Source of the DNA: Chiloscyllium plagiosum
Lineage: Eukaryota
Direction: 5' to 3'
Length of the DNA: 20,000 bases
Assembly: GCF_004010195.1 (NCBI RefSeq)
Contig: NC_057718.1
Span: forward strand, 7,439,893 to 7,459,892
Positions 1,094-19,528 of this stretch are shown in pieces. The position numbers were made by a program, and so were the translations under genes. Each line of letters opens with the position of its first letter. The stretch's first letter is position 1. The notes beneath the pieces were generated by a model, which saw nothing but the letters and a program-made list of their open reading frames with translations, did no database searches and was not told the origin of the DNA.

Positions 1094-1221
1094 TAGGAGA
1101 AAGTGAGGGCTGCAGATGCTGGAGATCACAGTTGAGATTGTGGTGCTGGAAAAGCACAGCTGGTCAGGCAGCATCCAAGGTGCAGGAGAATGGACGTTTC
1201 TCGTAAGTCCTTCATCAGGAA
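1094..1221 (-). mobile_element. Solo Penelope terminal unit, second copy, with degenerate hammerhead
   Basis: Homologous to 253-380. TSD tgattaatgtg (1083-1093) / tgattaacgtg (1222-1232). Minus strand reads attc-CTGATGA-AGGacttacga-GAAACGTC, with stem II damaged. Confidence 0.85.
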
Positions 1222-1624
1222 TGATTAACGTGAGAAGAAAGCTTGTCCCTTTAGTTGAAGAGTCATTAACAAGTGGGCAAAATGTTTAGGTGACAGGCAG
1301 GAGGTTTGGTTGGGATTTGAATGTTTTTTTATCCAGAGGGTGATGGGTATCTAGAATGCACTGTCTAGGAGGGACATTGAGGTGGGAAACCTCATAGCCT
1401 TTAAACAATACTTGGATGAGCACTTGAAACATCACAAAATTCAAAGTTATGGGTCTTGTGCAGGAAATGTAGATTTAGAATAGTTTTTGTCAGTGTGGTC
1501 TCAATGGGCCAAAGTGCTTCTTCTGAATGGTATGATTCTGTGATTCTGTAGGTCAGATTGTAAGATAGCCCTAGGTATGAAATTAATAGCATTTGAAATT
1601 CTCACAATACCAATGTGTTAAATA

Positions 1625-8930: not shown

Positions 8931-9302
8931 TGTGGGGTGAATTTGTATTTGCAGAATTATATTTTATTTTGCTCAAAAACTGCATGAATCCATGTAAGAA
9001 AATGTAAATCCCTTTTTTAGAAATAGAATCAGTTTGAACATTGGGGCACAGACAGCCTCACACAGGGCACCTCACACCTTCAATGCATTATCTAAGCCAA
9101 CATGGCACCTATTGTTAAAGTTCACTTGAGAATGTTACTTTAAAACAAATTTCTGGGATTTACATATGAAAGAACTGAAACCACCATGGTCATTCTAAAA
9201 GATGAGAGACTTAACAAACAATCCAGGTCTTTTTCAATACATTGCATCACGCTGTAAACTTTTGCTATAAATTCTGCATCTTACAATCTTATGCTCCACA
9301 AC

Positions 9303-9337
9303 CACCTGATGAAGGAGCAGCGCCCCGAAAGCTAGTG
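9303..9337 (+). ncRNA. Minimal type I hammerhead ribozyme motif
   Basis: CAC-CTGATGA-A-GGAGC-agc-GCCCC-GAAA-GC-TA-GTG: stem I CAC/GTG, stem II with one mismatch, palindromic AGCT in place of stem III. Confidence 0.75.
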
Positions 9338-9379
9338 CCTCCAAATAAACTGGCTCCTCTACATCAGAGAAGTGGGACT

Positions 9380-11490: not shown

Positions 11491-12450
11491 ACGATCAAGT
11501 GCATAACTGGTCACTATCCACTTCTTGGAAAGATTCATAATTGCTTTAACAACAGAAGATTTTTGAAGCAAAGAATTATTTTTTGCACGATTCACAATTG
11601 CGACCTTAAATATTTCCAGCACTGTTTGCTTGTAGCTGTTGAAGTATTTCTTAGCCCTATCTTGCAAAGTGGCTGTCACCTCTCTCAGACATTGTCTGTA
11701 TTTCCCTAGCTGTGCATATTTCTCCAACTGTTACTGTCTCACTGTCTTTGAACCTCTCCCTTTTCCTGTAACCATGCGAGTTCCTTACTGTGTGTTTGTT
11801 GGTCTGTACCAGTCTCTCTTGAGAATATCCATTTCAACACCTGTTGTGAGCTGTCATATTTCACAGTTTCACTCACTATCTGCTTTTGCAGTCTCATATT
11901 TCTCCTCCCAAGTGTCTCTGCCGCCTCCTCAAACACACACACATAACACACACAGTCTAAATTTGTAGAGCTCCATTCAGTTTAATTTGCTGACTTCACT
12001 GACCCCAAGTGAATACTCTAATATTTTTTATGTACAGTCCCATGATCAGTAAGCTCCTCATTTAATATAACCTTCTCATAAATGATCCCACGTCATATGC
12101 CATTGGTGCAAATGTTTGGGTGGATGTGCGTTGGTGAAAAGCGAAAAACATTCACATGCTGCATTTACTTTTCCCTCTTGGTCCAGCCTTTCTTCCCTCA
12201 TCTAAATTCTCAAGTTACATCTCTGACAAAACAATCAACTGGTCCCGACAGAAAATATGATGTTTAGTCTCAAAATGCTTTCTGCTGCTGGTTCTATTCT
12301 AGCGGTCACATCCGACGTCAGTTCCACTGACAGCATTTTTTATCCAGAAGGTTCGGCTGAAAATAATTGGGAGGATGAGGTGCAGAGGGGAATGTTGTAA
12401 TGTTCCATAGAGAAAGGACAGAAATAGCAAGGCTGCCTATCTGCCTCCTG

Positions 12451-12670
12451 ATTTGGAGATGCCAGTGTTGGACTGGGGTGTACAAAGCTAAAAATCACAC
12501 AACACCAGGTTATAGTCCAACAGGTTTAATTGGAAGCACACTAGCTTTCGGAGCGACGCTCCTTCATCAATTGTGTCCTCCACAATCACCTGATGAAGGA
12601 GCACCGAAAGCTAGTGTGCTTCCAATTAAACCTGCTGGACTATAACCTGGTGTTGTGTGATTTTTAGCTT
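12451..12670. mobile_element. Head-to-head inverted pair of PLE terminal repeats, each with a hammerhead core
   Basis: Arms ~12484-12575 and 12581-12671 are reverse complements. TSD tatctgcctcctg (12438-12450) / tatcagcctcctg (12671-12683). Same family as 9290-9350. Confidence 0.88.
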
Positions 12671-12689
12671 TATCAGCCTCCTGGCTTTT

Positions 12690-12990
12690 CCAACTCGATC
12701 CAGCCACATCTCCAAAACTTGCAATTTTTCACCCACCTCATATGCCTCCATCTCTACTCTCTTCCAATTCAGACTTCTGGGATGGTTCCTATTTTGGTCA
12801 AATCACCTAAACTCTGGGATTCCCTCCCAATAAAACTTTCCATCTCTTTACTTCTCTACTAGACACTTCTTAAGACCTGCCACTTTGACAATGCTTTTCT
12901 AACCATGTCAGATTTGGCTTCACAACTTTTCAGCACAGTGCGTTGTTTTACTATTTTAAAGCAGTTATATAACACAAGTTCTTGTTGTTT
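12690..12990 (+). mobile_element. L2-type LINE 3' end, decayed
   Basis: aaactctgggattccctccc (LWNSLP-like), cttcttaagacctgccactttgacaatgctttt, tail aaagcagttatataacacaagttcttgttgtt. Confidence 0.6.
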
Positions 12991-14863: not shown

Positions 14864-15445
14864 NNNNNNNNNNNNNNNNNNNNNNNNNNNNNNNNNNNNN
14901 NNNNNNNNNNNNNNNNNNNNNNNNNNNNNNNNNNNNNNNNNNNNNNNNNNNNNNNNNNNNNNNNNNNNNNNNNNNNNNNNNNNNNNNNNNNNNNNNNNNN
15001 NNNNNNNNNNNNNNNNNNNNNNNNNNNNNNNNNNNNNNNNNNNNNNNNNNNNNNNNNNNNNNNNNNNNNNNNNNNNNNNNNNNNNNNNNNNNNNNNNNNN
15101 NNNNNNNNNNNNNNNNNNNNNNNNNNNNNNNNNNNNNNNNNNNNNNNNNNNNNNNNNNNNNNNNNNNNNNNNNNNNNNNNNNNNNNNNNNNNNNNNNNNN
15201 NNNNNNNNNNNNNNNNNNNNNNNNNNNNNNNNNNNNNNNNNNNNNNNNNNNNNNNNNNNNNNNNNNNNNNNNNNNNNNNNNNNNNNNNNNNNNNNNNNNN
15301 NNNNNNNNNNNNNNNNNNNNNNNNNNNNNNNNNNNNNNNNNNNNNNNNNNNNNNNNNNNNNNNNNNNNNNNNNNNNNNNNNNNNNNNNNNNNNNNNNNNN
15401 NNNNNNNNNNNNNNNNNNNNNNNNNNNNNNNNNNNNNNNNNNNNN
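14864..15445. other. Assembly gap (582 N)
   Basis: Run of n. Confidence 1.
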
Positions 15446-15493: not shown

Positions 15494-15528
15494 ATTCCTG
15501 ATGAAGGGCTTTTCCCGAAACGTCGATT
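15494..15528 (+). ncRNA. Minimal type I hammerhead ribozyme motif in the PLE terminal repeat
   Basis: attc-CTGATGA-A-GGG-ctttt-CCC-GAAA-CG-TC-gatt: intact core, palindromic ACGT, predicted GUC cleavage after 15524. Confidence 0.78.
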
Positions 15529-15699
15529 TTACTGCTCCTTAGATGCTGCCTGAACTGCTGTGCTCTTGCAGCACCACTAATCCAAATTCAGGTTTCCAGC
15601 ATCTGCAGTCATTGTTTTTACCTAAACTATTCCACCCTGTCTTCACGGTGTCCTACAGCTGACTGCAAATGTCACTGTTACTTTGGAATGTACCTACCT

Positions 15700-19028: not shown

Positions 19029-19528
19029 NNNNNNNNNNNNNNNNNNNNNNNNNNNNNNNNNNNNNNNNNNNNNNNNNNNNNNNNNNNNNNNNNNNNNNNN
19101 NNNNNNNNNNNNNNNNNNNNNNNNNNNNNNNNNNNNNNNNNNNNNNNNNNNNNNNNNNNNNNNNNNNNNNNNNNNNNNNNNNNNNNNNNNNNNNNNNNNN
19201 NNNNNNNNNNNNNNNNNNNNNNNNNNNNNNNNNNNNNNNNNNNNNNNNNNNNNNNNNNNNNNNNNNNNNNNNNNNNNNNNNNNNNNNNNNNNNNNNNNNN
19301 NNNNNNNNNNNNNNNNNNNNNNNNNNNNNNNNNNNNNNNNNNNNNNNNNNNNNNNNNNNNNNNNNNNNNNNNNNNNNNNNNNNNNNNNNNNNNNNNNNNN
19401 NNNNNNNNNNNNNNNNNNNNNNNNNNNNNNNNNNNNNNNNNNNNNNNNNNNNNNNNNNNNNNNNNNNNNNNNNNNNNNNNNNNNNNNNNNNNNNNNNNNN
19501 NNNNNNNNNNNNNNNNNNNNNNNNNNNN
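19029..19528. other. Assembly gap (500 N)
   Basis: Run of n. Confidence 1.

Follow-up and report, generated by a model that had tools for sequence, protein, structure and literature searches.

A 20,000-nt window of Chiloscyllium plagiosum contig NC_057718.1 (the whole stretch of DNA analysed here, in whose coordinates all positions are given) contains a 220-bp palindrome with a hammerhead ribozyme-like core on each strand. An earlier note, made from the sequence alone, connected this palindrome with Penelope-like elements (PLEs), regarded it as a single insertion and suggested that a fold-back or template switch had produced it. Does the palindrome represent one insertion or several, is it itself a unit that is copied around the genome, and how were its two arms made? 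Our analyses indicate that 12451-12670 very probably arose when a young and extremely abundant PLE bearing an endonuclease (EN+) integrated once, with the compound architecture typical of such elements. The architecture at this locus consists of two 5'-truncated 3' ends placed head to head, with their 3' ends facing outward, a single tail and one 13-bp target-site duplication (TSD). The coordinates of all features are given in Table 1.

Table 1. Coordinates of the insertion and its parts in the 20,000-nt window.
Feature	Position	Strand or orientation	Description
Whole insertion	12451-12670, 220 bp	head-to-head arms	Chiloscyllium plagiosum NC_057718.1 window
TSD, left copy TATCTGCCTCCTG	12438-12450		last 2 nt (TG) alternatively the end of the tail
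Left arm	12449/51-12569, about 119-121 nt	-	5'-truncated PLE 3'-terminal fragment, unit 272-392
PLE tail, ~33 nt 3' extension, left arm only	12451-12483	-	unit ~358-392
Left-arm truncated min-hammerhead	12538-12569	-	U4-A9 onward; C3 and 5' strand of helix I absent
Arm junction	12568-12569		2-nt overlap CA, compatible with both arms
Right arm	12568/70-12670/71, about 101-104 nt	+	5'-truncated, same PLE family, unit 258-357, tail-less
Internal inverted repeat of the element, ATTGTG-TCCTC-CACAAT	12570-12586	+	upstream of the element's hammerhead
Right-arm min-hammerhead	12587-12616	+	both catalytic boxes complete; helix II = GG/CC
TSD, right copy TATCAGCCTCCTG	12671-12683		first T alternatively the last base of the arm

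The palindrome with its inverted arms was borne out by a repeat search, which recovered an outer inverted repeat (12484-12554 / 12601-12671; 71 nt, 97% complementary) and an inner pair (12558-12569 / 12591-12602; 12 nt, 100% complementary). RNA folding of the palindrome, a check that the earlier note had proposed, gives a single long hairpin of -159.1 kcal/mol, compared with -61.9 ± 5.2 kcal/mol for dinucleotide shuffles (z = -18.7, with 0 of 200 shuffles equally good). The structure of the sense arm alone, folded as RNA, is not unusual relative to expectation (z = -1.3).

The arms were mapped onto a yardstick, a real 393-nt copy of the element, on which C3 of the hammerhead is at unit position 271 and the predicted cleavage falls after position 299. 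The left arm is 98% identical to this copy and 95-99% identical to 39 other copies, while the right arm terminates in GATTTTTAGCTT(T). Beyond the point at which the left arm stops, other copies read ...TCATCA/GGTGAT... (the slash marking the stop; loose-end consensus from thousands of copies), and leading into the right arm they read ...GTGTCTTA/CAATTGTG... (loose-end consensus); longer copies across the junction region read ...ttacaattgtgtcctcc.... The inverted arms of ~90 bp described in the earlier note are thus real and differ in length (Table 1), and the ~5-nt spacer that it placed between them is not real: TCCTC is the loop of the element's own hairpin and lies within the right arm. The same ATTGTG-TCCTC-CACAAT is found in non-palindromic longer copies (L021, L039 and L040; L numbers designate individual family loci), as well as in the loose-end consensus.

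The plus-strand core reads CAC / CUGAUGA / A / GG-AGCA-CC / GAAA / GCUA / GUG, as had been claimed, including a stem II of GG/CC. All of the conserved positions are there (12590-12596, 12606-12609, U 12612 and A 12613), and cleavage is predicted between 12613 and 12614. Helix II is down to 2 bp via a 5-nt deletion relative to family GGAGCGUCGCUCC and is shorter than the at least 3 bp demanded by the min-hammerhead (min-HHR) descriptor; other copies read GGAGCGTCGCTCC at this position. On the minus strand (12569-12538) the core reads UGAUGA-A-GGAGC-GUC-GCUCC-GAAA-GCUA-GUG, with a 5-bp helix II (GGAGC/GCUCC) and the loop GUC. C3 is missing from it, as is the 5' strand of helix I, because the left arm ends at U4 (unit 272). 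The minus-strand motif proposed at ~12538-12572 therefore remains, and the C3>U point mutation assigned to it falls away, the bases next to U4 being those of the right arm. Both arms have G10.1-C11.1 and one unpaired A before helix II. Judged from their sequences, neither hammerhead is intact, the left being truncated at U4 and the right carrying the 5-nt deletion in helix II; both cores appear to fit the published pattern of PLE min-HHRs, with cleavage only predicted. The whole window has no match to the Rfam hammerhead models at gathering score, and a search of 12350-12800 at E ≤ 10 gave no hammerhead and six weak matches to hairpin-type miRNA, snoRNA and similar families, which reflect the palindrome. 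Among the family loci (171,694 bases), the min-HHR descriptor identified 45 sites, all with the unpaired nucleotide and G10.1-C11.1, and the family motif CUGAUGA-A-GGAGC-GUC-GCUCC-GAAA-GCUA matches every published min-HHR feature that was compared.

Other PLE-derived hammerhead cores are also present in the window. A second PLE family has min-HHR cores (CUGAUGA-A-GGG-CUUUU-CCC-GAAA-CGUC) at 15498-15530 (+) and 1190-1225 (-), of which the one at 15498 starts right after a run of N and the minus-strand one near 1212 is degenerate. Helix II differs between the PLE families in the window (GGAGC/GCUCC vs. GGG/CCC at 15498). At window positions 9037-9350 (+) a related PLE family is represented by a longer fragment, likewise 5'-truncated, that is 74% identical to yardstick unit 6-317; this fragment contains TATAAA at ~9268-9273 and a min-HHR-like core at 9306 (helix II GGAGC/GCCCC, with one mismatch), and it stops prematurely, giving way to another kind of repeat.

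The 13-nt TSD with 1 mismatch that the earlier note saw around the 220 bp was confirmed both by the sequence and by a displaced-flank control, which for this locus yielded a direct repeat of 5 nt. In a related species (organism B) there is an A at 12442, as in the right copy of the TSD, and a G at 12439; by parsimony from this A, the original TSD was probably a perfect 13-mer. Since one TSD, once perfect, brackets both arms, the reading as a single insertion event stands. Similar duplications accompany most of the head-to-head pairs examined: a TSD of at least 10 nt (≤1 mismatch) was found for 30 of 36 pairs (the window and 35 others), while flanks displaced by 60 nt gave a best direct repeat of 5-9 nt in 35 of the 36 controls and of 11 nt in one. 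For two of the six pairs with short TSDs (L052 and L054), the right end was misplaced in the scoring, with an arm split by an insertion.

The flank-element junctions are also present in short-read contigs. In contigs from two studies of the same species, the left flank is represented by 12250-12474 (X1) and 12250-12401 (X5) with 0-1 differences, the X1 contig including 24 nt of the element, and the right junction is contained in contigs of both studies (12646/12658-12900, 0-1 differences). Contigs of organism B correspond to 12250-12474 with 7 differences in 225 positions and to 12644-12900 with 12 in 257. The insertion is thus present in the related species too and predates the split between the species. 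No contig among the listed short-read contigs spans the whole palindrome and no empty site was found, the one related species examined having the insertion. Run X15, which we guess to be RNA, has contigs that match the repeat but none that match the unique flanks. The idea in the earlier note that the long hairpin, if transcribed, may be an ADAR or Dicer substrate is a conjecture. We saw no sign of a function for the copy at 12451-12670; most likely the locus is inert, a relic of an insertion made before the related species split off.

For classification of the element, longer copies were informative, as they share several hundred bases upstream of the terminal unit. L021 and L039 share 87% identity across 1,148 nt, a stretch that runs into the end of an ORF (...VVYLIPC...YIGET...NGHR...) that is GIY-YIG-like by eye. 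Between the stop of this endonuclease ORF and the terminal unit, both loci have ~450 nt of CA/TG-rich, microsatellite-like sequence (L021:720-1170 and L039:715-1170), which translates to H-T runs in several frames. A 116-aa endonuclease-like fragment retrieved 48,652 first-look candidates in the genome, with E < 1e-55 for all 150 that were scored; Pfam gave no GIY-YIG match for this fragment. At L044 the endonuclease frame extends upstream through reverse-transcriptase (RT) motifs and is interrupted by stops, and Pfam matched the upstream frame to RVT_1 with E = 6e-6 and 26.5 bits, under the 29.6-bit cut-off. The L044 frame has 968 relatives at E ≤ 1e-10 in a large protein collection, with sharks first, followed by turtles and invertebrates; many of these have PF00078 among their precomputed domains and some have PF01541 (GIY-YIG). 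A PDB sequence search with the RT-region frame of L044 returned 0 matches, and Pfam found nothing relevant in 13 ORFs of the window. Long open frames in L053 and L054 were rejected as coding because they are runs of N. Two N runs in the window (14864-15445, 582 bases; 19029-19528, 500 bases) also generate spurious long ORFs in all six frames. On the precomputed domains of the homologues and the motifs recognized by eye, the arms are assigned to the 3'-terminal region of an endonuclease-bearing PLE. The link to PLEs made in the earlier note holds, and it agrees with the available text of Craig et al. 2021 (PMC8557442), according to which PLE insertions are highly 5'-truncated, are adjoined by an inverted 5'-truncated copy and have a tail of 30-40 bp at one end only; for compound PLE insertions that text cites Evgen'ev & Arkhipova 2005 and Arkhipova 2006. 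In a limited literature search on sharks and Penelope, PLEs were only listed among shark repeats, and a description of this family was not found.

When the window's own genome (3.56 Gb) was searched with the 220-nt unit, 2,573 first-look candidates came up. All 39 non-self places among the 40 that were scored match practically the whole length of the unit, with 87-93% identity. The tailed arm as query gave 582 candidates, of which the 40 scored are 95-100% identical to the arm in the window, indicating that the family is young. When ten copies were aligned with their flanks, the arms proved strongly conserved and the centre different in each copy, with variable truncation points and, at some centres, extra element sequence. 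One outer end was always ~33 nt longer than the other, and the TSDs differed in sequence and in length (9-14 bp by eye in 9 of 10). Over the family, arms range from ~70 nt to >1 kb and TSDs from about 9 to 17 bp. Because centres, arm lengths and TSDs differ, each copy represents a separate insertion. The genome-wide comparison proposed in the earlier note gave a clear answer: palindromic units are very numerous, and the junction ttgtg-tcctc-cacaa is not shared by the ten aligned copies. The recurring palindromes are the repeated outcome of the element's integration mechanism and no amplified palindrome, and the copy number of the short twin form appears to be very high. The summed word depth of contigs over the arms (12448-12689; the three DNA runs X1, X5 and X10) is 10^5-10^6 times that of the unique flanks, a figure that does not equal copy number; by word depth, both the source species and the related species contain the family in enormous abundance. 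Two head-to-head pairs, L057:1972-4961 and L062:1094-3796, have two long partners, each with the end of the endonuclease ORF, and the twin architecture is therefore not confined to short fragments.

The positions at which the arms end are far from uniform. Among 83 arms, the 3' ends fall into two classes, one at unit 350-364 (33 arms) and the other at 385-393 (47 arms). One tail per pair was observed in all 36 pairs scored first and in 40 of 41 pairs overall. The 36 came from the whole-palindrome query (10, biased), from a tail-arm seed with the partner left free (17) and from bystander or protein-seeded loci (9). Ten further protein-seeded loci provided five pairs, with mixed tails in L055, L057, L059 and L062; in the exception, L058:1135-2991, both arms are tail-less, the TSD is undetectable and the pair apparently lies inside a further copy of this element. 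Few copies were sampled, and queries containing the tail supplied 27 of the 41 pairs; in the unbiased pairs (bystander and protein-seeded), 13 of 14 have one tail. If the start site were chosen independently for each arm, at most half of the pairs would be mixed (p about 0.001 for at least 13 of 14).

The 5' ends of the arms are clustered as well: 51 of 83 fall within unit 250-279, and they are most frequent at 260-269, with 29 arms. The cluster immediately precedes the hammerhead; 17-46 nt further upstream, at unit 233, is a TATAAA, which is kept in 10 of the 10 copies that reach that far (of 15 compared) and may be the promoter of the terminal repeat. On the yardstick (L018/L015), TATAAA is ~27-36 nt upstream of the commonest arm 5' end. 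The longer arm of a pair is tailed in some loci and tail-less in others: the tailed arm of L055 has 77 nt vs. >1 kb for its partner, and tailed arms are long in L043 and L054 and short in L050 and L052. Arms differ by a median of 3.2% within pairs vs. 4.8% between loci (permutation p = 0.034, two misaligned outliers included). Two arms of one pair therefore resemble each other only slightly more than arms taken from separate loci do, and co-derivation from one RNA is not established by this comparison.

How could such pairs form? In the work of Frangieh et al. 2024 (PMC11167929), the purified protein of the Poseidon PLE cut both DNA strands and extended each of them. Two neighbouring internal sites serve as starts of reverse transcription by this element, the tail corresponds to what lies between them, and hammerhead mutants still insert in vitro (PMC11167929). 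Applied to the shark family, the GIY-YIG endonuclease would cut both target strands ~13 bp apart, and each freed 3'-OH would serve as primer for the copying of element RNA from either of two internal start sites ~35-40 nt apart, with the left arm starting from the downstream site (and including the tail) and the right arm from the upstream site. Both cDNAs, ~85-120 nt in length, would end at or just past the hammerhead, near the probable start of pLTR-initiated transcripts; they would then be joined at the 2-nt microhomology and filled in, and the hammerhead cores would be passengers of the copied RNA segment. We would give the details of this mechanism, which are taken over from the in vitro work on PLEs, an even chance of being correct.

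A palindrome could also come from a single cDNA whose 3' end snaps back on the internal inverted repeat (ATTGTG/CACAAT) or switches templates, with the second arm copied from the first, much as the earlier note had proposed. The centre of symmetry does coincide with the element's hairpin ATTGTG-TCCTC-CACAAT in the window and in L002, the arms of many short twins are similar in length, and the tail is ascribed in the available text of PMC8557442 to endonuclease-mediated resolution of an intermediate, not to priming. However, the centres vary and are often outside the hairpin (L007, L008, L009 and L010), and a copied arm cannot exceed the length of its template, whereas arms within pairs can be strongly unequal and either the tailed or the tail-less one may be the long one. 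Extension of both target strands, moreover, is what was demonstrated in vitro for a PLE (PMC11167929). We consider an origin from one cDNA unlikely; the evidence leans toward two separately primed cDNAs, because there is a systematic difference between the outer ends and because one arm of a pair can be more than ten times as long as the other.

It is highly improbable that the ~220-bp palindrome itself is copied, as a MITE-like or foldback non-autonomous element. Such an element would be in line with matches over nearly the full length of the unit at all 39 non-self scored places and with the near-perfect hairpin fold of the unit, but the 10 aligned copies have different centres, the arms (~70 nt to >1 kb) grade into copies with the RT/endonuclease ORF, the TSD of about 9-17 bp has no fixed length, and the outer ends are unequal, with 33 extra nt on one of them and no mutual inverted repeat. 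Least credible are two independent back-to-back insertions, despite the abundance of the family and the occurrence of nested or adjacent insertions (L049 and L058), and an assembly inversion artefact, despite the breaking of short-read contigs within the repeat: a single TSD surrounds the two arms at this locus, as it does for 30 of 36 pairs, a tailed arm faces a tail-less one in 40 of 41 pairs, the arms meet directly and share 2 nt, and both flank-element junctions are found in independent short-read contigs of the source and the related species. Neither of the two refuting cases named in the earlier note was encountered. The MITE-like unit, the independent insertions and the artefact are all contradicted by the data.

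If two separately primed cDNAs make up each pair, the end positions of the arms may say something about the reaction. The one-tail rule would point to an obligately asymmetric, two-ended reaction carried out by a dimeric ribonucleoprotein. The short arms could, in our own inference, be explained by run-off at the 5' end of terminal-repeat transcripts, the alternative being a stop of the RT at the hammerhead. We put forward only tentatively, as possible and rather doubtful, that the short twins are a genomic footprint of PLE integration in which coordinated, exclusive use of the start sites and run-off arms act jointly. Run-off, if true, would mean that every PLE mRNA has an RT entry site in its first ~130 nt, and would explain why isolated min-hammerheads far outnumber full PLEs in genomes.

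Inverted 5'-truncated copies, the one-sided tail and min-HHRs are all already published. The locus itself matters little: it is a dead retroelement remnant of ~220 bp, of a type already known, and both of its ribozyme motifs are damaged. For genome annotation the result is of use, since a palindrome of this type in a shark should be treated in repeat masking as a twin insertion of a PLE and should not be called a foldback element, a miRNA-like hairpin or a pair of ribozymes. The regularities at the family level (a single tail in each pair, 3' ends of two discrete kinds, and 5' ends concentrated just upstream of the hammerhead) are cheap to obtain from genomic data and bear on the integration cycle of PLEs, which is still poorly understood; an in vitro system for them exists.

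A formal parallel outside PLEs is the twin priming of LINE-1, in which the second strand reportedly also primes reverse transcription, leaving an inverted 5' segment within one TSD. The two segments are said to stem from different parts of one RNA, so that sequence is inverted but not duplicated. In the shark pairs, unlike LINE-1, both arms copy the same segment.

Compound PLE insertions as described in the available text of PMC8557442 resemble the present locus in their strong 5' truncation, the inverted copy at the 5' end and an extension at one end (~33 nt here), and the elements resemble the shark family in their terminal-repeat hammerhead and in an RT with a C-terminal GIY-YIG-like endonuclease. 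They are unlike it in that both partners here are only ~100-120 nt, forming a 220-bp palindrome without a coding part.

The min-HHRs of PLEs were defined by Cervera & de la Pena 2014 (PMC4209133), whose available text has them thought to act as dimers, notes dual motifs close by on opposite strands and reports poor cleavage in vitro. The motif of the shark family agrees with these ribozymes in the CUGAUGA and GAAA boxes, G10.1-C11.1, a longer helix II (5 bp in the shark family), a helix I of 3 bp, the absence of helix III and the palindromic 15.2-16.2 (A-GC-U). In contrast to them, neither copy at this locus is intact and no Rfam model is matched. Animal non-LTR retrozymes are short, non-coding, hammerhead-bearing derivatives of PLE terminal regions (Li, Clavereau & Pollet 2026, 10.64898/2026.07.22.740005); in the available text of that source they are arranged head to tail in tandem, whereas the arms at this locus are head to head. 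A retrozyme was rejected as an identity for the locus, as there is no tandem copy in the window and no tandem array in 54 loci plus the window.

The Anolis Poseidon element PAc has an ORF that opens within the hammerhead, and its start sites lie 111-118 nt from the beginning of this ORF (PMC11167929). As in PAc, the hammerhead of the shark family is ~85-120 nt upstream of the start sites, with the shark cleavage site at unit 299 and arm ends at ~352-358 and ~390-393. Unlike that of PAc, the ATG within the shark CUGAUGA meets an in-frame TAG after 8 codons. In vitro, no difference between top and bottom strand in the use of the start sites was reported for PAc (PMC11167929), and a strict one-tail rule is therefore not predicted, whereas the shark pairs almost always combine one of each.
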